Shown here piece after piece: positions 1 through 11,898 of a stretch of 11,898 bases of DNA. The notes beneath the pieces were generated by a model that saw only the letters and a program-made list of their open reading frames with translations, made no database searches and was not told the DNA's origin. Numbering within the stretch: the stretch's first letter is position 1; every line of letters starts with the position of its first letter. Source of the stretch: a virus. Where the stretch lies: the IMG/VR virus record IMGVR_UViG_3300045988_036506. One strand, 5' to 3'. Made by a program: the position numbers and the translations under genes.

Positions 1-62
1 AAAGGTACACTAGGCACCCAAATTTAACATTTCCCAACAAAATTTAACTCTAATTAAAACAG

Positions 63-164
63 TTTGGCACGCTTTTTGCTGCGAGCCGGATTTACGATTC
101 TTTAACACACTTTGGCACACTTTGGCACGCTTTTTGCTGCGAGCCGGATTTACGATTCTTTAAC
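63..164. repeat. 44-bp perfect direct repeat inside the ITR, 2 copies (63..106 and 121..164); mirrored at 11735..11836
   Basis: TTTGGCACGCTTTTTGCTGCGAGCCGGATTTACGATTCTTTAAC is read twice. A third partial TTTGGCAC lies at 111..118 between the copies. Confidence 0.95.
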
Positions 165-218
165 GCATTTAACGCATTTAACACATTTAACACATTTAAC
201 ACATTTAACACATTTAGC
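165..218. repeat. 9-bp tandem repeat array, 6 units, inside the ITR; mirrored at 11681..11734
   Basis: The units are GCATTTAAC x2, ACATTTAAC x3 and ACATTTAGC x1, head to tail. Isolated ATTTAAC copies also occur at 22..28 and 42..48. Confidence 0.95.
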
Positions 219-258
219 ACACCGTTACTTTTGTTAAACTTTCACAAAAATAATGTTT

Positions 259-308
259 CAAATGTTTCACGTGGAACAGTGGCGACAAATGTTTCACGTG
301 AAACAAAT
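259..308. promoter_or_regulatory. Two copies of the CACGTG-centred motif (reverse complement of CACGTGAAACATTT) in ITR-L, a putative protein-binding site
   Basis: CAAATGTTTCACGTGGAACA lies at 259..278 and AAATGTTTCACGTGAAACAAATG at 288..308. GTTTCACGTGAAAC at 291..304 is a perfect 14-bp palindrome. The two cores are 27 bp apart and lie about 60-110 bp upstream of the left promoter. Confidence 0.6.
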
Positions 309-367
309 GAGGGGTGAATTGTTAAAAAGATTAAAATTAAAACTTTTACACTATTTAACAAAAATAA

Positions 368-399
368 TTTGGTGGTTTCGTAAAAAAGTCGTATCTTTG
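368..399 (+). promoter_or_regulatory. Left-arm promoter, Bacteroidota sigma-A type (-33 TTTG, -7 TAtcTTTG)
   Basis: TTTG lies at 368..371, followed by a 20-nt spacer and TATCTTTG at 392..399. This matches the published Bacteroides consensus TTTG/TAnnTTTG. A near-identical copy sits at the right end and a third at 6637..6668. Confidence 0.65.
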
Positions 400-445
400 C
401 AACGTGATTAAGAAAAAGAAGTCAAACCCCTTAAAATATAAAATT

Positions 446-691
446 ATGGCAAAGTACAAATTTAATGTTAACGTTGATATAACATCTTTCAAAGGTGATA
501 ACGTTGCAACAACTGAAACAGTTACATTATCAAATTATGGTAATGATAACAAAGGTTTTAAAACCTTACATGATGCAAAAAATTTCTTTAAAGAAATTGT
601 AGAATCTTTGGCATCTAGCGACAACAAAGAAGACGTTTCATACATTATCAAAGATAATAAAAACTTTCTTTGGTTTATTATGATAAAGTGA
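446..691 (+). CDS. Hypothetical small protein (81 aa), first gene of the left arm
   Basis: This is ORF 404..691 trimmed to the ATG at 446 (MAKYKFNV...). The GTG at 404 lies at or upstream of the predicted transcription start, just after the -7 box at 392..399. I recognise no motifs. Confidence 0.55.
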   Translation: MAKYKFNVNVDITSFKGDNVATTETVTLSNYGNDNKGFKTLHDAKNFFKEIVESLASSDNKEDVSYIIKDNKNFLWFIMIK

Positions 692-743
692 ATAGAGAGT
701 TCATAAATAGAGAATATAAAGTTGTAAGAATTTAAGTTTAACC

Positions 744-769
744 GCCTGTAAGGTCCACCCCTTACAGGC
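744..769 (+). terminator. Stem-loop (10-bp perfect stem, 6-nt loop), a possible attenuator or weak terminator
   Basis: GCCTGTAAGG tccacc CCTTACAGGC is followed by TTAAAATAA, which is only a weak U-tract. It sits between the 81-aa ORF and the downstream ORF and endolysin. Confidence 0.5.
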
Positions 770-785
770 TTAAAATAACTGATAT

Positions 786-995
786 ATGGGATATTCATAT
801 TTTAGAATCACATTGAAACAAGCCGATAAAGTTACGGTTTTTATGGTACGCTCTGACAAACTAAGCGAGTTCTTCAATAATAAGATTGATTACTTACAGG
901 GCGATTGTTCAATAACAATTAAGGGGCGTTTTCCAACGCACAAAGATTCTCGCAAGTGGTTTTTAGTTCCACCAACAGAAAGTAAATATTTTTAG
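786..995 (+). CDS. Hypothetical protein (69 aa)
   Basis: The ORF fills the gap between the hairpin and the endolysin gene with tight spacing (21 nt to the next ATG). It has no recognisable motifs and no transmembrane segment. Confidence 0.4.
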   Translation: MGYSYFRITLKQADKVTVFMVRSDKLSEFFNNKIDYLQGDCSITIKGRFPTHKDSRKWFLVPPTESKYF

Positions 996-1015
996 TTCAA
1001 CAAATAATATGTTAT

Positions 1016-1441
1016 ATGAAAAAGATTAAGTATTTTAAATTGTCTGAGTTTATCAACTCAGCAACTGCAAAACGTTTGGGTATTGATAATATGCCATCGT
1101 TTGAAGTAGTTGACAACTTGAATCGTTTGGCTGATTATTTAGACGGTATTCGTGCAAAGTTGGGTAAGCCTATTTTAATTAGTAGTGGGTATCGTTGCCC
1201 GATGCTTAATAAGGCGGTCGGGGGTGTTGTTAACAGCCAACACCAAAAAGGTTTAGCTGCTGATTTGGTTTGTGCTGATATGAAATCTTTGGAAAAGGTT
1301 CTCAGAGAAACAGGCGGTTTTGACCAACTTATTAAAGAACACCGCAAAGGTTCTCCGAACTCGTTTTGGTTTCACGTTTCAGTTTGTGCACGCAACGGCA
1401 AACCACGAAATCAAATAATTATGAATCTAGAAAAGAAATGA
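1016..1441 (+). CDS. Endolysin, zinc peptidase M15 family (D-Ala-D-Ala carboxypeptidase or L-Ala-D-Glu peptidase-like, Peptidase_M15_3 type)
   Basis: The translation shows FKLSEF...TA..LGIDN.P, then SGYRCPMLNKAVGGVVNSQHQKGLAADL (the H-x6-D zinc-ligand motif) and a distal WFHVS histidine. This is the characteristic layout of phage M15 peptidoglycan peptidases. There is no signal peptide or transmembrane segment. Confidence 0.88.
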   Translation: MKKIKYFKLSEFINSATAKRLGIDNMPSFEVVDNLNRLADYLDGIRAKLGKPILISSGYRCPMLNKAVGGVVNSQHQKGLAADLVCADMKSLEKVLRETGGFDQLIKEHRKGSPNSFWFHVSVCARNGKPRNQIIMNLEKK

Positions 1442-1481
1442 AAGAACATTTTCAACTTTTGAAAGATTCTATTTCACTAAC

Positions 1482-1522
1482 AAAGAAAACAGGTGGTAAC
1501 AACTTTACCACCTGTTTTCTTT
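1482..1522. terminator. Bidirectional intrinsic terminator between the convergent arms
   Basis: AAAGAAAACAGGTGGTA (1482..1498), loop acaactt, then TACCACCTGTTTTCTTT (1506..1522) form a perfect 17-bp stem. The A/T-rich arm ends supply a U-tract in both directions. The right arm abuts the stop codon of the minus-strand 510-aa gene. Confidence 0.85.
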
Positions 1523-3054
1523 TATAAATAAACGCCTGTTTCCAACTGATTTATAATATCGTTGTACTCGTCAACTAACAAATTTGCAGCGTTCAAATTC
1601 ACGTTTTCAAACTGTGCAAACCCTGTAACGTCTTTTACTGTTACGTTTTCCTGTGTGTTGTTTACAGGAACGTTTACGGTTAAATTTTCAGTAATTAAAA
1701 CGTAAGGTTCTAAACCGTACAAAATTTGTTCGTTCCATTGTTCACCGCCAACAACGTTTAAATCTGTGCCCAAACGGTAAATAACATCACGTGACAACGA
1801 AAAACTTTCAAGTTGGAACGTTACACCATCACACGACAACAACGCCACGGCATCACCTGTAATCACGTTTACTTTGATAGATAAATTAATCGTTTTACCG
1901 ATGTAATTATTATCAATAGAAACAACGCCACGGCACGGGATAAACATTTGAATCTGTGCGTTATAGTCTTCATTATTGCCGTTTGCACCTGTTAGTTCAA
2001 CGTTGCCGAAATCAAGTAACATTATGTCACTTTCGGGGTATTTAACCGTTATGCCCGTGTTGTAGTTACCGCATTTCAAAACATCGTCACCGCCAACAGG
2101 AACGGGTGCAAAGATTCTTTTAATACGGTTCACATATTCACCCAAATTCACCTCAGAATAAGTTGTGCCCGTATCGCTTTCGCCCGTTGGCTTAAAGAAA
2201 CGTTTCTTTGCGAACTCGTCTAAGTTTTCCAACGTAACGATATAAACGTTTATTGCACCGTAATTTTTAATCGTTGGCGGTTGCACTACATCGGCATTTG
2301 CATAAACCGTTAAATCTGTTGCACCCGATGTTAATTTAAATGTTACAGTGCCCGTTTGCTTATCTTCTGAAATTGTGCCGTTACTTACAACTGTATTACC
2401 GTTGTTATTAGTGAAATTTGCCTGTATCTCGGTTAATTCCGCATTCGGGTTCGCTTTGAAATTAAACGTGTAACTTTGCCTCGTCTTCACTTTTACGGGT
2501 TTATCGCCTACAATTTCGCAATTTGTCAAACTGTAATCTACTGCGATATAATTACCCAAAAGATATTCACCGTTTATAATAACCGATTCCGTTGCAATAG
2601 GAACAATAATTGTTGCCGTTTGGTCGTTAACGGTCATATTGTATGTTTCACCCCCGTAAGTTATTGTAGGTGTACCGTTAAACATTCCCTGTGCCTTTCC
2701 CTCAACTGTTACGGTGTAATTTGTTTTACTTGCCACCGCTTTTGCAGTAGTGTTTGCAATATTGTTCGTTATTTGCAGTTCCTTTGCACCAGAAACAAAT
2801 TTACCTGTTATTGTGATTTCGTCATCGCTAGAGCAATAAACAGTAAGTGTTGCAACGTTGCCCGAAACATTAAACGGTGTATCTTCAATCCAATAGCCAT
2901 CCCAATTTTGATAACTAGCTTTTAAATCGGTAAATGTTCCATCACCGTTGCCCGTTACCGTTATATCGAAATGGTTGGAATCTGCTCCCTGTTTGTCGGT
3001 TATTGTAACGTCACCCGTTAACCCCGTTGTATCATAAGTTAATAAATTAGCCAT
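1522..3054 (-). CDS. Tail or receptor-binding structural protein (510 aa), last gene of the late operon
   Basis: This is the largest structural ORF. The N-terminal ~260 aa is T/N/G/V-rich, beta-strand-like, and appears to form about three tandem modules that each end in an alternating pattern (DEITITGKF, ESVIINGEY, ATDLTVYANAD). The C-terminal ~250 aa is a distinct domain. The functional call is positional and compositional only. Confidence 0.55.
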   Translation of the reverse strand: MANLLTYDTTGLTGDVTITDKQGADSNHFDITVTGNGDGTFTDLKASYQNWDGYWIEDTPFNVSGNVATLTVYCSSDDEITITGKFVSGAKELQITNNIANTTAKAVASKTNYTVTVEGKAQGMFNGTPTITYGGETYNMTVNDQTATIIVPIATESVIINGEYLLGNYIAVDYSLTNCEIVGDKPVKVKTRQSYTFNFKANPNAELTEIQANFTNNNGNTVVSNGTISEDKQTGTVTFKLTSGATDLTVYANADVVQPPTIKNYGAINVYIVTLENLDEFAKKRFFKPTGESDTGTTYSEVNLGEYVNRIKRIFAPVPVGGDDVLKCGNYNTGITVKYPESDIMLLDFGNVELTGANGNNEDYNAQIQMFIPCRGVVSIDNNYIGKTINLSIKVNVITGDAVALLSCDGVTFQLESFSLSRDVIYRLGTDLNVVGGEQWNEQILYGLEPYVLITENLTVNVPVNNTQENVTVKDVTGFAQFENVNLNAANLLVDEYNDIINQLETGVYL

Positions 3055-3056
3055 AA

Positions 3057-3500
3057 TTAAACGTTACCCTTAATTGTTACCATAATAATGTTACCCGTTT
3101 CATTCAGCAAATCTTTATTCGGAAAATCTAGTTTTCTGATATTCGGGCGAACATCAACCACATTTGAACGGTTTGAAAGATATTTGTTTCCGTTCTCGCT
3201 TTTTGTTAACGTTGCAGTACTGTTTAAGATAATATCCTTATAAGTAAAAAGAACGTCAACACGCAAACGAACGGTGCAAATATCGCCATCCTGTTGTTTT
3301 TCCGAAACGAAATAATAACGATTCAAACTTTCGATGTAAACGTAATTAAACGTAACAGGCGTGCGAGTTCTGAAACGAACAACAGGCGTTAACACGTTGA
3401 ACGTTGCATTTAATACGCCCGTGTATTCTTCGTTTGCCTGTAAATTCTTGTTTACTTCGTTGGGTTTGCCGTCGTAAACGAAAGTTTTAATTTTAATCAT
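3057..3500 (-). CDS. Hypothetical structural (tail or head-tail joining) protein, 147 aa
   Basis: This is ORF 3057..3539 trimmed to the ATG at 3500..3498 (MIKIKTFVYDG...). The TTG at 3539 lies inside the terminator hairpin at 3518..3554. The gene sits between the capsid and tail genes. Confidence 0.6.
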   Translation of the reverse strand: MIKIKTFVYDGKPNEVNKNLQANEEYTGVLNATFNVLTPVVRFRTRTPVTFNYVYIESLNRYYFVSEKQQDGDICTVRLRVDVLFTYKDIILNSTATLTKSENGNKYLSNRSNVVDVRPNIRKLDFPNKDLLNETGNIIMVTIKGNV

Positions 3501-3517
3501 ACCACTAAAAGTTAAAA

Positions 3518-3554
3518 GGGGGCATTCCTGTGCTATCAACTACAGGAACACCCC
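3518..3554 (-). terminator. Intrinsic terminator or attenuator just downstream of the major capsid gene
   Basis: The minus-strand RNA would read GGGGUGUUCCUGU-aguugauagc-ACAGGAAUGCCCC followed by UUUUAACUUUU. Partial termination after the capsid gene is a common arrangement. Confidence 0.7.
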
Positions 3555-3572
3555 AACAGTTAAACAACCAAA

Positions 3573-4757
3573 TTAGGCTACAAAGAACACGACAAAATTC
3601 TCGTTTGTGTCATTGAAGTAACCTGCATCGAATTTGTAGTAATTGTTAAAAAATTCTGCTTTGGCGTTGTAGTTGGTTGTTACTCGCTTATCTAAGTTTG
3701 TAACACCGAGAGCGTCACGGTCAAACATCACGCCCAAAACGCCACCGATAGAAACGGTCGCACCGCTTGCAGATTTCACATCTACCTTTGAAACGTTGGC
3801 GAAAGCGTAATCTTTTCCCGATGCTTGCCAACTTGCAACGGTTTCAGCCTGTGGCAAAAGAACATTCTCGTTATGGAATGTATCTGCATACAGGTAGGTT
3901 TTTGCAGCTGCTGCAAAGTCGGACAAAAGAACGGTGTGCAAAACGTCTTTTGGTGTGAAACGTTCCTTACCGCCAACGTTGAACAAAGTTGAAATTGTTT
4001 GCAAACGGTCGGCATACAAGCCCATCATATATGCAGCAAAACGGATAAAATCGGGGGTTGTTACCGCAACATTTGCAGCCAACGATGCACCAGTCTTCTC
4101 GTTGTAAAGTTTCAACAGGTTAACACAACGAACGGTTGATGCACTAGCATAATCAACTTTTTCGTTAGTTGATGCAACGAAACCGAATGCGGCCTTGTCG
4201 GCATCCAGCGTTTCAGCAATCATATTGTTAATCGTGCGCATAATAAGAGCATCGGTCTTGATAGTCATTGACTTCTCAACTGCTGAATAAATCATTGACA
4301 AAAAGCCATTCAGCTGTTCTGCGCTGCTGAAAGATTCCCTTACCTGTCGTTCGGTGATAGACACGGGAACTTCAAAAGTTACCTTTGAGTTAAAGAACTT
4401 AGCTGAAACGGTCGGTTTGTGGAACACGTCTTGGCTGTATTCCTTACCGTCAGTAAGATTCCACGTGTCGTTCTCTTCTGCTTTGGGAACGTCAGCGGAA
4501 ATTTTTTCCAATACAGACCCAAATTCCCAAGCATCCATCAACACGCTAGGAACTTTACCCGAATAAGGGCGGTTAACGAAAATCACTTTGCCGATGTGGT
4601 TTACAAGTGATTTCACGTAATTGTCAACGGCTTTCTGATTAAACACCTCATTACCCAAATCAACAATACCTGTAAGGTCTTCATGTACCAAATCGGTTTT
4701 GCCTAAAACTTCACCTGAAACGCTATTAATAAGCGTGTAAATTTGCTTTACTTCCAT
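3573..4757 (-). CDS. Major capsid protein (HK97-fold, phi29 gp8-like N-terminal and core regions)
   Basis: The 394-aa product lies downstream of the portal. DNYVKSLVNHIGKVIF and FSSAEQLNGFLSMIYSAVEKSMTIKTDALIMRTI resemble my recollection of phi29 gp8 ([47 protein letters not shown]). There is no Ig-like C-terminal extension. Confidence 0.78.
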   Translation of the reverse strand: MEVKQIYTLINSVSGEVLGKTDLVHEDLTGIVDLGNEVFNQKAVDNYVKSLVNHIGKVIFVNRPYSGKVPSVLMDAWEFGSVLEKISADVPKAEENDTWNLTDGKEYSQDVFHKPTVSAKFFNSKVTFEVPVSITERQVRESFSSAEQLNGFLSMIYSAVEKSMTIKTDALIMRTINNMIAETLDADKAAFGFVASTNEKVDYASASTVRCVNLLKLYNEKTGASLAANVAVTTPDFIRFAAYMMGLYADRLQTISTLFNVGGKERFTPKDVLHTVLLSDFAAAAKTYLYADTFHNENVLLPQAETVASWQASGKDYAFANVSKVDVKSASGATVSIGGVLGVMFDRDALGVTNLDKRVTTNYNAKAEFFNNYYKFDAGYFNDTNENFVVFFVA

Positions 4758-4774
4758 TTTATAAAATTTAAGTA

Positions 4775-5344
4775 TTAATAAATATCTATTGTTAACTCTT
4801 TTGCAAGTTCTGCGATAACTTGCATTTTGAAATTTGTTCTTCTGAGAATCATTTCTTTTTGAACAATTTCACTAACAGGAACACCATTCGGCAAACTGTT
4901 CTTAACAGTTGTTTTCGTGCTCGTTTCTTGTCGGTTTCCTGTGGAATCTCTTTGCTGCTTTGTGTCATTTCCGAAATCTCCATTATTAAACGTTACACTT
5001 GAATCGACCGTGCTATTATTACCTGTTTCGTCAACGGTGTTATTTGTTGTTTCCGTCAACTTTTCAGTAACAGGGTTTAATGGGTCATATTCGTTATTAA
5101 ACACTTGAATTTGTTTTTGCCATTCGTCAAACTTAACTGCTATGATACTTTTTACAATATCATTTGCAGTTTCGGGCGTAACGGCATTTACCAGCGTTCT
5201 GTTTCCATATTTGAAACGAAAATCAATATCAATCAAAAGCGGGTCATCTTCATTAAATATTGATTTGTACAAAGCAGGAAACAGGGGTTTAAAGATTTTT
5301 TCAAACAAACCATTTTCACCCGTGAAAAGTTCATTAATTGTCAT
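4775..5344 (-). CDS. Structural-module protein (189 aa), possibly a scaffolding or head-completion protein
   Basis: It lies between the portal and capsid genes, the canonical scaffold position. The middle is polar and low-complexity (N/T/S/D/Q-rich). The start overlaps the portal stop by 11 nt. No diagnostic motif was found. Confidence 0.55.
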   Translation of the reverse strand: MTINELFTGENGLFEKIFKPLFPALYKSIFNEDDPLLIDIDFRFKYGNRTLVNAVTPETANDIVKSIIAVKFDEWQKQIQVFNNEYDPLNPVTEKLTETTNNTVDETGNNSTVDSSVTFNNGDFGNDTKQQRDSTGNRQETSTKTTVKNSLPNGVPVSEIVQKEMILRRTNFKMQVIAELAKELTIDIY

Positions 5345-6410
5345 CTTTGTTTTCTTTTTCTTCTTTTTCTTCTGTTTCTTCTGTTTCCGTTTCTGTTTCT
5401 TCTGTTTCTGTTTCTGTTTCTTCTGTTTCTTCTGTTTCTTCTGTTTCTGTTTCCGTTTCTTCTGTTTCTTGCGTTTCTTCTGTTTCGTTTTCCGTTACAG
5501 TGTCAACGTCTTCTGTATCGGTGTGGTCGTGCCCGTCTTCTGTGGCTTTGAGCAACGATAAATAATTTTCGTGTTCAATCTTCCAGCTAGACCCCAAAGT
5601 TACGGTTATGTCCGTGCCGAACATTTCGTTAACACGTTTCACACCCTCAACACGTTCATTTAGCATTGAATCAACGAACGGCATTAAAGCGTCAATATTC
5701 ATTGAAACCTCTTGCGTGTTCAAACGTTCACGTTTCATATTATAGTTTGCATTCAAACCTAAATCGTTGAACATTGATGCTTTGTAATACTGCAAAAGTT
5801 CAATTAATTGCCCGATTTGCTGGTTTCCCTGTGTCGGTGGGGTCTGCAGGTTAACACCTTTGAAAAAGGCATTTTCCCCGATTACTGAGAAATCACCGTT
5901 CAAAATCTTCTGCAAAAAAGATTCTGCGCTTTGTTTTGTTTTATCATCACTAGCAGAAATAAGCATTGTGATTCTAGTTAAAATACTAGCCAAATTAAGC
6001 GTTATTGTTGCGTCGGTGTAAAGAACGCCATATTTGCCAATTAACGGCAAAAGTGAATCTGCAAACGGTGTGTTGTTGATAACGACAATATCGGAATCAA
6101 TTTTAAACGTTTTGTTCACATTCAACCACGGGTTTGCTACAACGTAATATTTGCCGTGATAATAGGCATCACATTCACCAACCCGTGTTCCATTCAGTGC
6201 ATACAGTTCACCGTTCACTTCTGCTATTCCAACGTTACCCGATGTCTGCAGAATCTTTTCAAGTTCAACGGGCGGCATCGTTTCGGGTGCGCCCGTATAT
6301 TCAAACATCCTTGAAGTCATACAAAGAACTCGTTGCATAAACGTGAATAATGCTGAATCTTTGTTTTTAACTTCTGTTTGATACCTGTTGTATAAGTTTT
6401 CTTTCTCCAT
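5334..6410 (-). CDS. Portal (head-tail connector) protein, phi29 gp10-like, with an acidic Glu/Thr repeat C-terminal tail
   Basis: [31 protein letters not shown] resembles phi29 gp10 [57 protein letters not shown] resembles [26 protein letters not shown]. Both phi29 strings are recalled from memory. The last ~60 aa read ...[52 protein letters not shown]. Confidence 0.85.
   Translation of the reverse strand: [358 protein letters not shown]
5345..5490. repeat. Imperfect GTTTCT / TCT (6- and 3-nt) tandem repeat tract encoding the portal acidic tail
   Basis: The plus strand reads ...ttctgtttcttctgtttccgtttctgtttcttctgtttctgtttctgtttcttctgtttc.... It also generates the spurious F/C-rich and S/V-rich plus-strand ORFs 5142..5561 and 5338..5565. 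Confidence 0.9.
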
Positions 6411-6604
6411 TATTTAACATGCGTTTTAATTAAGGTACAAAGTTCTGTTAACACCTTAGTGTTACTTTGCACGGTTTCGTTCAACTTGTCGGTTTCCTGC
6501 TGGTGGCGTTCGTTTTGTTTCTCCATATAGAAGAAAAGGGCGATACAAACCGCTACAGGAAAACCAACGTTACCAACTAGGGATACAATAGCGTTCACAT
6601 CCAT
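6410..6604 (-). CDS. Small single-pass membrane protein (64 aa), a holin candidate with possible YvrJ-family resemblance
   Basis: The N-terminal hydrophobic segment IVSLVGNVGFPVAVCIALFFY is followed by a charged helical tail. It is the first gene after the late promoter, and its stop overlaps the portal ATG by 1 nt. The LVGNVGFP...Y..EK pattern recalls YvrJ-family proteins from memory only. Confidence 0.6.
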   Translation of the reverse strand: MDVNAIVSLVGNVGFPVAVCIALFFYMEKQNERHQQETDKLNETVQSNTKVLTELCTLIKTHVK

Positions 6605-6636
6605 ATAGCAAAATTTAACTTTGTTATTTTACGATG

Positions 6637-6668
6637 CAAAGATAATACTATTATTTGGTATTACCAAA
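6637..6668 (-). promoter_or_regulatory. Late (structural-operon) promoter, Bacteroidota sigma-A type
   Basis: The minus strand reads TTTG (6668..6665), a 20-nt spacer, then TATCTTTG (6644..6637), followed by CATCGT. Spacing and the extended -7 box (TATCTTTGCAnCGT) match the two terminal promoters. The -33 box lies within the 21-bp palindrome at 6651..6671. Confidence 0.65.
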
Positions 6669-6671
6669 TAA

Positions 6672-6715
6672 AACGGGGGAAAAGTGTTCCACGTGAAACA
6701 TTTTTAACCCCCGTT
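6672..6715 (-). terminator. Terminator hairpin after the early operon, with a CACGTGAAACATTT motif copy embedded in the stem
   Basis: AACGGGGG (6672..6679) pairs with CCCCCGTT (6708..6715). The interior TGTTCCACGTGAAACA is largely self-complementary. On the minus strand the hairpin is followed by UUAUUUGG. It lies 9 nt after the ATPase stop codon. Confidence 0.7.
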
Positions 6716-6723
6716 AACAGATA

Positions 6724-7863
6724 TTAAGTAATAATGTTACTTCTTGCGCTTGCCATCAAGTAATTACGCACAATTTCACCTATTTCGTTATTTTGATAAA
6801 ATACCTTATCGGTTGCGAAATACTTCGTTATCTGAGATTCTACAAACGTTGCATTGCTCAACAACTTTCGCTTATAGTTCGGCTTGCCGTTCATCTGCAG
6901 CGAATAAATCAAACTGTTGTCCGTGTCCTTAATCGGGGTTGTCTTGCTGTGAATGTAAATGAAGTTATTCACCCCCGTTTCTTCGTCTTCCAACTGAATA
7001 ACGTTGCCCTGTAAGGTCATTTCGTTAAACTGAATGTAAAAGACAAACAATACGTCATTCGGTTTGTATTTTACAGGCAAATGGGGATATGCAGCGAGTT
7101 CCCATTTACCGCCCGTAATCATTTGCAAATTCTCATTGTCGAAACAGAAATACTTGTTGCTCGCCTTGTGCTTGACAATCGTGCTGCAATATTCTACTGC
7201 AACGGTTGCACCGTGTTCACCGAATTTATAAATATCTATTGTTCCCTGTTCCATTGCACGAACTTGTTTCAATCCCATTTCTGAGAAATACGGGCAAAAC
7301 TGATTCACGGTGTTACCCAGCATAAAAACTTTAACATCGTTTCTCTGTCGAATAATCGTGCTTAACAGGTTCATATACAGCATAAATTCATCGGGTAAAT
7401 AATAACGTCTTGTCAGGAACTCATCAAATACCACGGTTGTTATATTCGGGTAACTGCTGGATTTTTCGTGTTCCTGTTCTGATAAACAGAAACCAAAACA
7501 AAACGGGGTGCTGTCGGGTACACGTTTCTTTGTTTCGGCATCGTAGGACGAAAGAAACCATTTACCCGAAATATAAAACACTTCGTTAAACTTACCACCT
7601 GTCAGTTCCTGTATTACGCCATTTGCAACGTGATTTGAAAACAGACTTTCGGCACGTTTGCCCCTTAAATCTTCGCGCCATCTACGAATATACGCCATTT
7701 GCTTTCCTGTGCGCAAATATTCTTTGATGCCATACAATAACGTTGCATACGTTTTACCGTTGGAACGTTCACCAAAAATAACGTTGTAATCGGCATTCTT
7801 TGATAAAATGCGATTCAACGTGTAAAATTTCGGCGTTTCTACATTTTCTTTCTTCTGTTTCAT
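6724..7863 (-). CDS. DNA encapsidation (packaging) ATPase, phi29 gp16-like
   Basis: Walker A is FGERSNGKTYA (nt 7750..7773 encode GERSNGKT). Walker B is PNITTVVFDEFL. MAYIRRWREDL, SSSYPNITTVVFDEF and LPDEFMLYMNLLSTIIRQRNDVKVFMLGNTVNQFCPYF are collinear with phi29 gp16 FIYVRRYKPEL, SNAYPNVSTIVFDEF and IPNEVSALLNLMDTVFRNRERVRCICLSNAVSVVNPYF, recalled from memory. Confidence 0.9.
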   Translation of the reverse strand: MKQKKENVETPKFYTLNRILSKNADYNVIFGERSNGKTYATLLYGIKEYLRTGKQMAYIRRWREDLRGKRAESLFSNHVANGVIQELTGGKFNEVFYISGKWFLSSYDAETKKRVPDSTPFCFGFCLSEQEHEKSSSYPNITTVVFDEFLTRRYYLPDEFMLYMNLLSTIIRQRNDVKVFMLGNTVNQFCPYFSEMGLKQVRAMEQGTIDIYKFGEHGATVAVEYCSTIVKHKASNKYFCFDNENLQMITGGKWELAAYPHLPVKYKPNDVLFVFYIQFNEMTLQGNVIQLEDEETGVNNFIYIHSKTTPIKDTDNSLIYSLQMNGKPNYKRKLLSNATFVESQITKYFATDKVFYQNNEIGEIVRNYLMASARSNIIT

Positions 7864-7864
7864 A

Positions 7865-10072
7865 TTATTCTTTCTTTAATCTGATTCCCATTAAATAATT
7901 AATATAAAGAACTGAAAGACTTAAAGTGTACCCCGTTGGCTCTAAGTGAACACCAGTTAACGTGTCGTAACTTGAAACCGTACCTTTGTAATCTTTTATC
8001 GTTCCCGTCTGTTCATAATCAATATATGTGTGAATGTTCTTACCTGTTGCCGATGGCGGTATATCTAGATAATTTGTGAATGCGTCAAATATCCCACTTT
8101 CACCAAACGTTTCTAACATATACGGGATAGCAGATTTTTTGTTAACGCCCGAAACGGTCATTGAGTAATCGTAATCTTTGCCGTTTACTGTAAGGGCGTT
8201 TTCTTCCTGTACCATATAGCGTTTTGCACCTAAAGTTTTGAAACGGGTGTAACGCCCCTCATAGTCCCAAACCCCCAACGGTTTTGCGATTCCCCTTATC
8301 GTGACGGGTTCAACCTTTTCAAACGGTATTTTATGATGCTTACAGGCGGCACGTAATTTTCTTTGCGCTAAATCGTTGTAGGCCTTGAAATATTCTTTGT
8401 GTGCATCACCGTTCATTATTTTAACGGAATCTGTGTCACTGTATATGTAATCGTCACCACATTCCGAAATACCCGTAAAAAGGTTGCGTCTGGCATAAGC
8501 GGTAACATAAATACCCCACGGGTAAAACAAAAAGCGGTTTTTACTATCATTATATTTATTTAGCATTACTAATTGTTTTTCGCCTGTAAGGTGTTCAATA
8601 TCCCACGTTTCACCATCACATAAAATTTCATCACGCAACGGGTTTGTAACACACATACCGTAACAACTGTTCAGCATTTCTTTGCTATTCAAATACTCAA
8701 CCTCTTTTCCCTTAACACCTTTTAATTTTGTTTTCATTTCATACAGGTGCAGAATAGATTCTACAAATTCGGTCGGCAAATATTCTTTTCGGTAGCATAT
8801 CATTCGCCCGATTCTTATTTGTTCCCACGTGTAAAACTGTGAAAACACTTTGTAATCTATTTCTGTAATAGTCATACATATTTTCTTAGCACAAACCAAA
8901 CGCCCGTTGTTTTCGGAAACATTTTCTTTCACGAAGCATTTACTAACAGAAATTGGATTCTCGTTTTCTGATTTTGCAAAAATGTTTGTTATCTCTACAT
9001 CAAACACGCAACAGAATTTACTACACATAAACTCAAATTGTTTCATTGATTTAACAGGAACAACAACACCCGTGCTCATCGGAAACTTTTCTGAAACCAT
9101 CACATACGGGTAACTACTGGTAAAATCGTAACTGTCTACGTTTTCTATAACTTCATCGGTATATTTTGCGTTGGCGTGTGTAAAACCGCCCGAAAACGCC
9201 CGTTGTAACATTGCAAATTCTTCCATACCTGTTATATTCAAAGAATGAATCTTATCAATGTATTTAAAGTTTGGAATCGTTTTGCCTGTTTCGTCAGTTG
9301 CCTTAAAACATACCGAACGGCAATATTTACGCACAAACCCCGTTTTTGTAACCGGTAAACGTGTTATTCCTTTGTACTGTTCGATTAATTCCTGTATGTA
9401 ACACATCACCACTTTTATATCATTCAAGCAATAACCAATTTCTTTTTGCGTTAACGGTGTTCTACTGTGACGTAACAAACTGTAATCTAAATCACCTACC
9501 AACTTTTCACATTTATATTTGTGAAGCTGTTCACCCAATTTCGCCAACGAATAACCCGAAAGCAAATAAGAACATCGGAACTCTAGACCCGTTTTTGTTA
9601 CACCGTAAATCGGTTTACGCAAATCTATTGAGAAAACTTTTTCCCAATCTAACATTTCACGGAAAAATTGGAACTCGTATGCCAAATTGTGAACGTATAT
9701 GATAATGCGTTTCTTTGGGCAAAGTTTCAATATATCCACGATTTCGGATAACATTTGCAAAAATTCATCCCACGTTCTGCCAATTATGCAAAAACCGTTT
9801 ATTCCAAATTGCCAAACATACATTAAAGAACATTTTTCCATTTTGGTTTGCTTGCCGCCTAATTTCATATAACGTTCGTAACTGTATGTTTCCCCGTCTT
9901 CATCCCTGTAAAATGAAGTTGTTTCAATATCGAAAGATACAGGCACGTTTAAGAACTTTTCGCCCTTATTGTTGCCTGTAAAATTCTTTTCATTCACCGC
10001 CAAAGATAAAACCTTTGCAATATCTTTAGGCGTGTAAATTTCTGTATGTAGTTCAAAGGGTATTTTCTTCAT
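7865..10072 (-). CDS. Protein-primed family-B DNA polymerase (735 aa)
   Basis: All hallmark motifs are present in order. They are ExoI FDIETT (D48/E50), ExoII HNLAYEFQF (N129), ExoIII YCLNDIK (Y214/D218), FSGGF (the YxGG/A equivalent), motif A DFTSSYP (D316), motif B KEMLNSCYG (K464), motif C YSDTDS (nt 8426..8443, checked against the DNA) and KxY as GAKRYM (K617). Long inserts between motifs A-B and B-C fit TPR1/TPR2-type regions. Confidence 0.95.
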   Translation of the reverse strand: MKKIPFELHTEIYTPKDIAKVLSLAVNEKNFTGNNKGEKFLNVPVSFDIETTSFYRDEDGETYSYERYMKLGGKQTKMEKCSLMYVWQFGINGFCIIGRTWDEFLQMLSEIVDILKLCPKKRIIIYVHNLAYEFQFFREMLDWEKVFSIDLRKPIYGVTKTGLEFRCSYLLSGYSLAKLGEQLHKYKCEKLVGDLDYSLLRHSRTPLTQKEIGYCLNDIKVVMCYIQELIEQYKGITRLPVTKTGFVRKYCRSVCFKATDETGKTIPNFKYIDKIHSLNITGMEEFAMLQRAFSGGFTHANAKYTDEVIENVDSYDFTSSYPYVMVSEKFPMSTGVVVPVKSMKQFEFMCSKFCCVFDVEITNIFAKSENENPISVSKCFVKENVSENNGRLVCAKKICMTITEIDYKVFSQFYTWEQIRIGRMICYRKEYLPTEFVESILHLYEMKTKLKGVKGKEVEYLNSKEMLNSCYGMCVTNPLRDEILCDGETWDIEHLTGEKQLVMLNKYNDSKNRFLFYPWGIYVTAYARRNLFTGISECGDDYIYSDTDSVKIMNGDAHKEYFKAYNDLAQRKLRAACKHHKIPFEKVEPVTIRGIAKPLGVWDYEGRYTRFKTLGAKRYMVQEENALTVNGKDYDYSMTVSGVNKKSAIPYMLETFGESGIFDAFTNYLDIPPSATGKNIHTYIDYEQTGTIKDYKGTVSSYDTLTGVHLEPTGYTLSLSVLYINYLMGIRLKKE

Positions 10073-10743
10073 TATAAACCAAATTTTTCAAATTCTGATA
10101 GAATCTTTTTTAACGGTTCATCCGTTTTGAAATGGTCAACACCGTTCACGAAAGCCTCTGAATTCGGGTCTTTTGCTATTTGTTCGATAGCTGCATCTAA
10201 GGCGTTTTCAATTTTAACGGCATCGTCTTCGATTTGGTCGGACACGTCACGGGATTCTTGTTCAAGTTCACCCGTAAAATCTTTGTATTGCATTAAGTAT
10301 TGTTCCAAAAATCGTTCATCGGAAACACTTGCAATTTTACCCATCAATTTGTCTTGCATCAACTTAAATTCTTCATCATTTAATTTGTAAGACTTCTTTA
10401 AATGGTTTGAATATTCACGTGTACCACTTGCCGTTGATGTAGGCTGTTGCAAAAATGAAATCGCTTTGGAATATTCGATTTTTAAATCGTTCCAATCGTG
10501 TTTCATCGAAAACTTTGTGAATCGCTTAATATCACCCTTATTTAACGCAACAACTGCGGGCGAAACAAAACCAGACCTTTCCACATTCTGAATGCGCCTG
10601 TTTGCCTGTTGAAACACACGGGCGATTTCTTTGCGCAAATAGCCACGGGATTCTATTGCATCCATAATTTGCTTGTCAACGTGTATTTTTGCCGTTGATG
10701 CAAACGTTCTTTTTGAAAACCCAATCGGATTTAACTTTGCCAT
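10072..10743 (-). CDS. Putative terminal protein (223 aa)
   Basis: It lies immediately upstream of the polymerase, with a 1-nt stop/start overlap, as in phi29 gene 3 and gene 2. The N-terminal half is basic and the C-terminal half strongly acidic (ELEQESRDVSDQIEDDAVKIE...). The C-terminus KILSEFEKFGL recalls phi29 TP KILSYLEQY...KGF. Similarity is weak and recalled, and the priming residue is not identified. Confidence 0.6.
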   Translation of the reverse strand: MAKLNPIGFSKRTFASTAKIHVDKQIMDAIESRGYLRKEIARVFQQANRRIQNVERSGFVSPAVVALNKGDIKRFTKFSMKHDWNDLKIEYSKAISFLQQPTSTASGTREYSNHLKKSYKLNDEEFKLMQDKLMGKIASVSDERFLEQYLMQYKDFTGELEQESRDVSDQIEDDAVKIENALDAAIEQIAKDPNSEAFVNGVDHFKTDEPLKKILSEFEKFGL

Positions 10744-10771
10744 AATATCAACACTTTTAAATGAAATAAAA

Positions 10772-10811
10772 ACGGGGGTAACAATAACTTTTAATTACTG
10801 TTTACCCCCGT
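10772..10811 (-). terminator. Intrinsic terminator or attenuator between the small early genes and the terminal protein/polymerase genes
   Basis: The minus-strand RNA would read ACGGGGGUAA-...-UUACCCCCGU (10-bp stem) followed by UUUUAUUUCAUUU. Its G5/C5 stem arms match those of the 6672..6715 hairpin. Confidence 0.7.
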
Positions 10812-10838
10812 GACGTTATCCACCCTTACCCTACAAAA

Positions 10839-11204
10839 CTACTTATCTACAAAGGTAATACCGTAACACTTTTTGGTGTGCGATTCATATTCATAAATCG
10901 TGTAACCAACTTTGTTTGCTTTGATAGCGTCAACCGCCTCACTATTAGCGAGAATCTCTCGCACCGTGTCACCTGTGAACTGTGGCAAATTCACAAGACG
11001 CTTGTTTTCTGCGTCAATAATTACAGGTGAATCGCCCAACTGTGATTTGTGAACGTACATACCATTGACAGGGTGTACTACATCACCGCCACCGTCTTTT
11101 TTACTGTTGTAAATGTCGGTCAACTTCACAAACGGAAAATCGGTCGTATCAATACCAAAACTAGTCTTATTGAAAGTACTAGCAAAACTAAAACCCTTAG
11201 CCAT
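10839..11204 (-). CDS. Early protein (121 aa), possibly a single-stranded or double-stranded DNA-binding protein
   Basis: The ORF is clean, with an ATG start and a terminator downstream. Its size and early-operon position parallel phi29 p5 (124 aa). No diagnostic motif was found, so the function is positional inference only. Confidence 0.5.
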   Translation of the reverse strand: MAKGFSFASTFNKTSFGIDTTDFPFVKLTDIYNSKKDGGGDVVHPVNGMYVHKSQLGDSPVIIDAENKRLVNLPQFTGDTVREILANSEAVDAIKANKVGYTIYEYESHTKKCYGITFVDK

Positions 11205-11252
11205 AACTTTAAACTTTTAAAAACGTTGAACTTCTGATGCCCGTGAACTGTG

Positions 11253-11420
11253 TTACTTTACTTCATTCACCCCGTTTGCTGCTGCAAACTCGTTCAACCA
11301 CTTCTTAAAGCGGTTCAACTTGATAACCGCCTTATCGTCTTTTGCGACTTCGTTTGAAGTCATAAGAGCGTTAACACTAGTGATGCAGTTGAAAACAGTC
11401 TCATTAAAATTCTCATTCAT
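11253..11420 (-). CDS. Small early ORF (55 aa), not in the supplied track
   Basis: I translated it by hand as MNENFNETVFNCITSVNALMTSNEVAKDDKAVIKLNRFKKWLNEFAAANGVNEVK*. It is the first ATG (11420..11418) about 43 nt downstream of the right promoter's predicted start, and it fills an otherwise empty gap. Confidence 0.45.
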   Translation of the reverse strand: MNENFNETVFNCITSVNALMTSNEVAKDDKAVIKLNRFKKWLNEFAAANGVNEVK

Positions 11421-11469
11421 AATTACCTAATTTAAATTGTTAAACTTATATTGTTTCTTAAACACGGTG

Positions 11470-11501
11470 CAAAGATACAACGATTTTGCGAAACCACCAA
11501 A
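11470..11501 (-). promoter_or_regulatory. Right-arm early promoter, Bacteroidota sigma-A type
   Basis: The minus strand reads TTTG (11501..11498), a 20-nt spacer, then TATCTTTG (11477..11470), followed by CACCGTG. The 53-nt block 11463..11515 matches 354..406 at 47 of 53 positions in inverted orientation. Confidence 0.65.
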
Positions 11502-11557
11502 TTATTTTCGTTAAAAAGTCTTAAAGAAATAAATTAACTGTTGTTAACACTTGTAAC

Positions 11558-11640
11558 GGTCCACGTGAAACATTTGTAACATCACCCCTCATTTGTTTCA
11601 CGTGAAACATTTGTCGCCACTGTTCCACGTGAAACATTTG
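11558..11640. promoter_or_regulatory. Three copies of the CACGTGAAACATTT motif at the right end, one outside the ITR
   Basis: GGTCCACGTGAAACATTT lies at 11558..11575, inboard of the ITR boundary, with no counterpart on the left. The ITR copies lie at 11591..11611 and 11621..11640. The cores are at 11562, 11599 and 11626. Confidence 0.6.
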
Positions 11641-11898
11641 AAACATTATTTTTGTGAAAGTTTAACAAAAGTAACGGTGTGCTAAATGTGTTAAATGTGT
11701 TAAATGTGTTAAATGTGTTAAATGCGTTAAATGCGTTAAAGAATCGTAAATCCGGCTCGCAGCAAAAAGCGTGCCAAAGTGTGCCAAAGTGTGTTAAAGA
11801 ATCGTAAATCCGGCTCGCAGCAAAAAGCGTGCCAAACTGTTTTAATTAGAGTTAAATTTTGTTGGGAAATGTTAAATTTGGGTGCCTAGTGTACCTTT
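11582..11898. repeat. Right inverted terminal repeat (ITR-R), 317 bp
   Basis: It is the exact reverse complement of 1..317. It contains the mirrored 9-bp array (11681..11734) and the mirrored 44-bp direct repeats (11735..11778 and 11793..11836). Confidence 0.97.

Follow-up and report, generated by a model that had tools for sequence, protein, structure and literature searches.

IMG/VR virus record IMGVR_UViG_3300045988_036506 (11,898 nt; the whole stretch analysed is referred to below as the window) is a complete linear genome with real physical ends. It very probably is the double-stranded DNA genome of an uncultured phi29-like podophage, which forms a divergent sister lineage of Astrithrvirus, Phanie and DU_PP_III. 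An earlier note on this DNA had described a complete 11.9-kb linear genome bounded by perfect 317-bp inverted terminal repeats (ITRs), and this was confirmed by the repeat match, by ends shared with related contigs and by adapter junctions.

The segments 1-317 and 11582-11898 are 100% complementary over 317 nt, and the window starts and stops on this repeat, both termini reading 5'-AAAGGTACAC. A chance origin of the ITR is excluded because the match is so long, and its existence is certain because the two arms diverge into differing unique sequence at 317/11582. Further inward, a weaker similarity is found between 317-415 and 11454-11552 (99 nt, 81%). The ITR is internally structured, with a 58-nt direct repeat present twice at 43-158, about eight tandem copies of the 9-nt unit TTTAACRCA at 150-221 and the palindrome TGTTTCACGTGRAACA (CACGTG core) at 265-276 and 292-303. 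Four terminal blocks (1-10, 23-38, 43-48 and 63-78) show no variation in 16 relatives, and the intervening spacers are variable.

Ends were compared among 107 loci obtained by a PolB-based scan of IMG/VR (PolB 89-99% identical, contigs clustering at 11.4-12.7 kb). Many of these relatives begin and stop precisely at AAAGGTACAC (L010, L014, L022, L044, L054, L071, L077 and L082, among others), and one common base forms the end of dozens of contigs that come from different samples. In seven independent contigs (L013, L055, L057, L059, L061, L076, L081) an Illumina adapter (...GCTCTTCCGATCT) is joined straight onto AAAGGTACAC, which means that ligation took place at a physical end of the DNA, at window base 1. 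The number of A in the terminal run ranges from 3 to 6 in different contigs (L009, L040, L048, L066, L060, L068, L083), which could be due to sliding-back slippage or to A-tailing during library preparation.

Given these ends, it is extremely improbable that assembly artefacts account for the inverted repeat and for the seeming completeness, be it that a fold-back chimera was formed or that the contig is part of a larger element or prophage. False terminal inverted repeats can arise in assemblers, and for a number of related contigs (L011, L025, L028, L032, L033, L036, L039, L043, L052 and others) the catalogue 'ITR' is exactly 55, 99, 119 or 141 nt long and does not reach AAAGG. These short repeats are k-mer-sized assembly artefacts, and the contigs that carry them are slightly truncated. 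An assembler also folds an inverted repeat into a single path, by which the 100% identity of the two ITR copies is partly forced; the perfect identity may thus in part have been imposed by assembly, and it counts against the genome reading that this identity is not independent evidence. The adapters found right at AAAGGTACAC and the end base common to dozens of contigs argue against an artefact, as do the two arms, which run into different unique sequence inside the repeat. No integrase was found, and all matches in a bacterial species-genome collection are stand-alone contigs of 11-13 kb inside metagenome-assembled genomes (MAGs), none being embedded as a prophage. One contig, L084 (20.3 kb; ENA ERZ27310421 k141_31118), does run on into bacterial DNA. 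Its positions 12080-12100 fuse the exact phage terminus (...GTACCTTT) to a Bacteroides (uniformis-type) chromosome in the middle of a truncated DUF3316 gene, and a chimera formed at a free end, by ligation or in assembly, is the probable explanation. An artefactual origin is already largely refuted by these observations.

Between the ITRs lie 14 genes, the count given in the earlier note (about 14), which cover 88% of the sequence. No tRNA was found in a scan of the window. The features are as follows (ORF, open reading frame).

1..317, plus strand: left ITR, presumed replication origin; terminus 5'-AAAGGTACAC, adjoined at base 1 by an adapter in related contigs
368..399, plus strand: left-arm promoter of the Bacteroidota type (TTTG-N20-TATCTTTG), from a motif scan
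446..691, plus strand: 81-aa ORF, first left-arm gene; start GTG 404 in the ORF list, ATG 446 likelier
786..995, plus strand: 69-aa ORF, conserved in close relatives
1016..1441, plus strand: endolysin, peptidase M15_3 (L-alanyl-D-glutamate / D-Ala-D-Ala peptidase type; PF08291, 1e-20)
1484..1520, no strand: bidirectional intrinsic terminator where the convergent arms meet, a perfect hairpin of 16 bp, from hairpin alignment and sequence reading
1522..3054, minus strand: 510-aa tail protein, gp10-type C-part of a split tail knob (hhalign 99.8%, E 8e-29)
3057..3500, minus strand: N-part of the split tail knob, about 147 aa, gp09 orthologue (BLAST E about 1e-6)
3573..4757, minus strand: major capsid protein, phi29-type HK97 fold family (PF25622, 2e-55)
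4775..5344, minus strand: 189-aa gp07 orthologue (hhalign 96.4%, E 1.4e-9)
5334..6410, minus strand: portal (upper collar connector; PF05352, 3.6e-13; phrog_2038, 5e-35)
6410..6604, minus strand: 64-aa holin, first gene of the late operon (phrog_4898, 9e-8; gp05 orthologue)
6637..6668, minus strand: central (late) promoter of the Bacteroidota type, from a motif scan
6672..6722, minus strand: early-operon terminator with a G5/C5 stem, a T-run and the CACGTG palindrome in the loop; compensatory stem changes in relatives
6724..7863, minus strand: gp16-type DNA packaging ATPase (PF05894, 1.2e-23; Walker motifs)
7865..10072, minus strand: protein-primed PolB (PF03175, 2.5e-16; phrog_1907, 1e-71; catalytic motifs)
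10072..10743, minus strand: 223-aa terminal-protein candidate (synteny and gp02 homology)
10839..11204, minus strand: 121-aa early protein (ORF)
11253..11420, minus strand: 55-aa early ORF
11470..11501, minus strand: right-arm (early) promoter of the Bacteroidota type, from a motif scan
11582..11898, minus strand: right ITR, mirror image of 1-317 (reverse-complement match)

The capsid, portal, ATPase, PolB and endolysin calls made previously were borne out by these Pfam and PHROG matches. For the gp09 orthologue, the ORF list starts at TTG 3539 (160 aa), whereas the start at ATG 3500 (147 aa) fits the orthologues. The lysin had been taken to stand alone on its arm, which is wrong, as it is the third gene of a left-arm operon of three (446-691, 786-995 and 1016-1441). 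The close relatives L084 (10487-10735) and L085 (10355-10603) carry an extra 82-aa gene 3' of the lysin, which is missing from the window and could encode a spanin or another lysis accessory protein. Judging by position and size only, the 121-aa early protein could be a single-stranded DNA-binding or other DNA-binding protein; it matched neither phi29 p5 nor any entry in the PDB.

No nucleotide match to the window was obtained by megablast against 50,697 phage records. Among cultured phages, the closest ones by protein comparison all belong to the Astrithrvirus type (PolB 44-46%, capsid 57-59% identity), namely Salmonella phages astrithr, Astrid and assan, the Pectobacterium phage DU_PP_III, the Acinetobacter phage Phanie, the Enterobacter phage Entb_47 and the Shigella phage vB_SHGBLB0004. 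The gene order on the minus strand of the window equals that of the annotated Astrithrvirus-type maps, nine genes being colinear and 1:1 orthologous by BLAST and profile-profile comparison. These are the 223-aa protein (gp02, 30-33% identity), PolB (gp03, 45-46%), the ATPase (gp04, 50-53%), the 64-aa holin (gp05, E 3e-10), the portal (gp06, 37-39%), the 189-aa protein (gp07, hhalign 96.4%, E 1.4e-9), the capsid protein (gp08, 58-59%), the 160/147-aa protein (gp09, E about 1e-6) and the C-terminal half of the 510-aa protein (gp10, hhalign 99.8%, E 8e-29). With no megablast match and with protein identities of 44-59%, the window lies outside the nucleotide similarity of about 70% used for a genus by the International Committee on Taxonomy of Viruses, and the lineage probably deserves the rank of a new genus or of a higher taxon, placed inside the Astrithrvirus-like clade or next to it.

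The phage type as such is already known, being that of the phi29-like, Astrithrvirus-like clade with genomes of about 11-12 kb. Both the small size and the joint PolB-ATPase operon emphasized in the earlier note are present; they are not peculiar to the window, as they are described traits of Astrithrvirus, Phanie and DU_PP_III (about 11.5-11.9 kb). Its statement that the gene order is unlike that of phi29 was confirmed by map comparison. Gut metagenomes and virus catalogues contain thousands of near-identical sequences or proteins of the window lineage, including GenBank MAG records (e.g. UVX96231.1), and a literature search yielded no paper describing this lineage. Bacteriophage sp. 2692_55609, a gut phi29-like MAG of cluster 30 in a review, for which Bacteroidales were suggested as host (PMC11476376), is probably a separate lineage, because the same review places it nearer to the Amedibacillus phages (PMC11476376). 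A smaller genome, that of Vibrio phage K58 g2 (L127, OZ195715.1, 10,390 bp), was considered and rejected, since the record starts in the ATPase gene, ends in the PolB gene and has no ITR; it is a permuted assembly, from which the true ends are probably missing.

The PolB contains recognizable catalytic motifs: ExoI (D48/E50), ExoII (N129-Y132-E133), ExoIII (Y214/D218), motif A (D316), motif B (K464), motif C (YSDTDS, 544-549) and KxY (K617). Its ExoII motif carries a Glu (E133) at the position where the family consensus has Asp. The ATPase has a Walker A motif at residues 31-38 and a Walker B motif at 144-148. Directly upstream of the PolB gene, and overlapping its start by 1 nt, is the gene for a 223-aa protein that is predicted to be all-helical and shares 30-33% identity with gp02 of the Astrithrvirus group. 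The motif PTSTAxG (residues 101-107) is near-invariant, T104 and G107 being invariant from the window clade to Astrithrvirus; candidate priming residues in this family are S61, T102, S103 and T104. From synteny, size, helicity and the homology to gp02, the 223-aa protein is plausibly the terminal protein (TP), and it is the only plausible candidate in the window. Its Astrithrvirus homologue is named TP in the literature. The earlier proposal of a TP candidate thus stands as far as synteny and homology to Astrithrvirus gp02 are concerned, and it received no support from sequence profiles or structure.

Several results weigh against the phi29-like reading. Comparison of the TP candidate with phi29 gp3 by hhalign gave a probability of 0.2%, a profile search of the PDB returned designed repeat proteins only, a Pfam scan of all 16 members of the family gave nothing coherent, and the AlphaFold2 model has a pLDDT of 39.6. 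Direct links were detected neither between the 510-aa protein and phi29 gp9 nor between the 189-aa protein and phi29 gp11. For the prohead RNA (pRNA), strictly a Salasmaviridae trait, Rfam gave no match in the window at E<=1 apart from spurious miRNA-like matches on the terminator hairpin, and the terminal 445 nt (1-445, both strands) fold no better than shuffled sequences (z -1.4 / -1.6). As neither Rfam nor folding revealed a pRNA, packaging may depend on a motor unlike the one of phi29, or the window may contain a divergent pRNA.

The expression signals of the window are of the Bacteroidota type. The pattern TTTG-N19-21-TAnnTTTG occurs four times in the window, with 0.66 matches expected, and three of the four matches share an identical TATCTTTG box and a 20-nt spacer, lie in the three non-coding regions and are each aimed into an operon. 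Sigma-70 consensus sites are not enriched in the window. A Shine-Dalgarno (SD) sequence is found at none of the 14 gene starts, where the mean duplex energy is -1.1 kcal/mol compared to -1.5 for a random background; the same measure gives -6.3 for astrithr, -7.1 for Phanie and -8.3 for phi29. The cultured B. fragilis phage vB_BfrS_23, used as positive control, resembles the window (median free energy -0.4; 10 promoter motifs versus 1.1 expected), and the negative controls astrithr, Phanie and phi29 have neither signature. Among 120 related loci, the Bacteroidota signature occurs solely in the clade whose capsid identity is 68% or higher; the more distant relatives, other gut phi29-like MAGs included, are nearly all SD-led and mostly lack the motif.

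All three promoters are accompanied by the palindrome GTTTCACGTGAAAC, of which five exact matches are present in the window (0.01 expected). The copies, reading GTTTCACGTGRAAC, are located at 265-276, 292-303, 6687-6698, 11596-11607 and 11623-11634, with a degenerate copy at 11560-11573. In L114 and L119, two more distant relatives (69% capsid identity), the palindrome is located within the spacer of the promoter. It resembles the operator of a dimeric regulator, for which the small early ORFs would be candidates.

The -7 TAnnTTTG / -33 TTTG type of promoter is peculiar to the primary sigma factor of the Bacteroidota. Because SD sequences are absent and Bacteroidota promoters are present, as in the Bacteroides phage control and opposite to the negative controls, the host is likely a gut member of the Bacteroidota, and within this phylum probably of the Bacteroidales. 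The lysin, which shares about 46% identity with lysins from phages of B. fragilis and Achromobacter, and the Bacteroides partner of the chimeric contig are compatible with such a host and weak as indicators. Speaking against this assignment, the host call is indirect, and close relatives are binned into MAGs of Gastranaerophilales, Prevotella, Scatosoma and others. In particular, the two closest matches in the species-genome collection (92% capsid identity) come from Gastranaerophilales (Melainabacteria) MAGs of independent studies, and the GC content is similar (about 37%), as would be expected if the host were another gut lineage with little SD use instead of a Bacteroidota. However, these are whole-phage contigs binned by composition and coverage, and other close relatives were placed inconsistently, in Prevotella, Scatosoma, Tissierella and Staphylococcaceae. 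MAG bins were rejected as host evidence, as the assignments contradict each other across phyla. The promoter, specific to the Bacteroidota sigma factor, is reproduced in the Bacteroides phage, and the huge number of sequences in gut metagenomes suits a dominant host such as the Bacteroidales better than a rare lineage. A host such as Gastranaerophilales is accordingly considered improbable.

Among the virion proteins, the 510-aa protein is composed of two parts. Its C-terminal 241 aa are orthologous to gp10 of Astrithrvirus and Phanie, as given above, and AlphaFold2 is confident only for three N-terminal Ig-like beta-sandwich domains (from a shallow alignment). Among otherwise near-identical genomes (homologues P0255-P0374), the Ig-like module at the N-terminus, about 95 aa long and varying in sequence, occurs in one to four copies; the proteins measure 510, about 605, about 705 or about 800 aa, and the shortest version is that of the window. 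In a few relatives the homologue carries a carbohydrate-binding CBM_4_9 (PF02018) or a PF21923 domain. Variable Ig-like modules are the pattern expected of a receptor-binding protein that itself contacts the host surface. The 160-aa (gp09-type) family matches the N-terminus of the tail-knob proteins of phi29, C1 and 8EGS. A two-gene tail knob decorated by Ig-like domains has been described for the Astrithrvirus-type group (PMC11476376), with which the three Ig-like domains of the 510-aa protein agree, and gp07 of Astrithrvirus and Phanie is called the lower collar there (PMC11476376). The holin (64 aa) has a single N-terminal transmembrane helix. The portal ends in a C-terminal tail of 68 aa (residues about 291-358; window 5330-5510) that consists of 54% Asp/Glu in T-E-E/T-E repeats, with a periodicity of 9/12 nt at the DNA level. 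Assemblies of relatives tend to break at this tail and at the ITR, so that contigs of about 6.1 or about 5.5 kb are numerous.

The relationship to Phanie raises the question of helper dependence. According to the review (PMC11476376, citing Pourcel et al. 2024), particles of Phanie do not infect unless they have the tail of its helper myophage Aci01-1, a dependence known for Phanie only, and the review suggests that its relatives may behave alike (PMC11476376). By analogy, the window might represent a satellite-type phage that replicates, builds capsids and packages DNA by its own means and becomes infectious only after docking on the contractile tail of an unrelated co-infecting myophage. The virion module (portal, gp07, capsid, gp09 and gp10) is gene-for-gene orthologous to that of Phanie, and no fibre, spike or appendage gene is found among the family and profile matches of the window proteins. 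The earlier description of the replicon as 'self-sufficient' is for these reasons not established. On the other hand, Salmonella phage Astrid, with the same gene set, is described as a non-satellite isolate (bioRxiv 10.1101/2025.06.18.659913), and the variation in copy number and sequence of the Ig-like modules, together with the carbohydrate-binding domains of some relatives, is receptor-binding-like. Helper dependence of the window phage is therefore judged unlikely, and there is a small chance that the abundant gut lineage as a whole consists of Phanie-type tail-borrowing satellites of Bacteroidota that dock onto the tails of gut myophages. If this were the case, tail piracy would be common in the human gut and not a single Acinetobacter curiosity.

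The preferred reading of the window as a phi29-like podophage genome can be put together as follows. The genome is linear with physical ends and ITRs, has promoter and terminator elements and encodes PolB with its catalytic motifs, the ATPase, the portal, the capsid protein and lysis genes. By analogy with the family, the protein-primed PolB would initiate replication at both ends with the 223-aa protein as primer, and the 3'-TTT terminus would permit sliding-back as in phi29. The 317-bp ITRs would hold the origins and arrays of protein-binding repeats. The sequence signals suggest that three Bacteroidota-type promoters drive three operons: an early operon of the right arm (55-aa ORF, 121-aa ORF, TP, PolB and ATPase) ending at a terminator, a late operon in the center (holin, portal, collar, capsid and the two-part tail knob) and a convergent left-arm operon with the M15 lysin as its last gene. 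Early and late genes may be under temporal control, as in related phages. For packaging, the gp16-type ATPase is expected from its family to move unit-length, TP-capped DNA through the portal.

The window may serve as an end-to-end reference, with termini mapped to the base, for an uncultured and extremely common gut phi29-like lineage. It combines the phi29/Astrithrvirus body plan with Bacteroidota promoters and SD-less translation, i.e. a minimal phage type seems to have crossed a phylum boundary in its expression signals, and a shift in host phylum relative to the Astrithrvirus group is well supported. That phi29-like phages reach the Bacteroidales has already been raised for another gut MAG (PMC11476376). 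Isolation attempts are directed by these results toward Bacteroidales hosts, both with and without helper myophages. The compact pair of protein-primed PolB and candidate TP comes from a new host background, and SD energy combined with the TAnnTTTG motif offers a simple host-assignment signature for small phage MAGs misplaced by binning.

Compared to phi29 (Bacillus, Salasmaviridae), the window has in common the protein-primed PolB with the (candidate) TP gene directly upstream, the gp16-type ATPase, the gp10-type portal, the phi29-type capsid protein and the tail knob's N-terminal domain. The terminus (5'-AAAG(T/G)A) with its reiteration of three A is also alike, as is the arrangement of early genes near the ends, late genes in the center and a bidirectional terminator. 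In contrast, phi29 has a genome of 19.3 kb with a 6-bp ITR, compared to 11.9 kb and 317 bp in the window, and its ATPase gene is the last late gene, while in the window it comes after PolB in the early operon. The early operons of the window read inward from the ends, which is not the case in phi29. Homologues of the phi29 pRNA, head fibres, appendages (gp12), gp13, scaffold gene, p4 and p6 were not detected in the window. The gut phi29-like MAGs (2692_55609, MT836125 and MT836155) resemble the window in their size of about 12-13 kb, their origin from human faeces and their relation to phi29. The GenBank gut MAGs that were found differ in a capsid protein only 29-33% identical to that of the window, are SD-led and lack the Bacteroidota motif.

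The closest agreement is with the Astrithrvirus group. Astrithrvirus, Phanie and DU_PP_III have linear genomes of 11.2-11.9 kb with ITRs as well (171 bp in the Phanie record and 219 bp in that of DU_PP_III, compared to 317 bp in the window). The genes are arranged in the same way (small ORF, TP-like protein, PolB, ATPase, holin-like protein of 62-70 aa, portal, gp07, capsid, gp09 and gp10), and the tail knob is likewise encoded by two genes, with Ig-like domains on the larger one and no fibre genes (PMC11476376). The termini of the window begin with AAAGG, similar to phi29, whereas those in the Phanie and DU_PP_III records begin with GGG. The lysin of the window is a non-homologous M15 peptidase encoded on the opposite strand in the left-arm operon, and a terminator and a promoter separate the ATPase gene from the late genes, where the Astrithrvirus genes abut. 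The most informative difference lies in gene expression, as the window has Bacteroidota-type signals without SD sequences, while the Astrithrvirus genes are SD-led.

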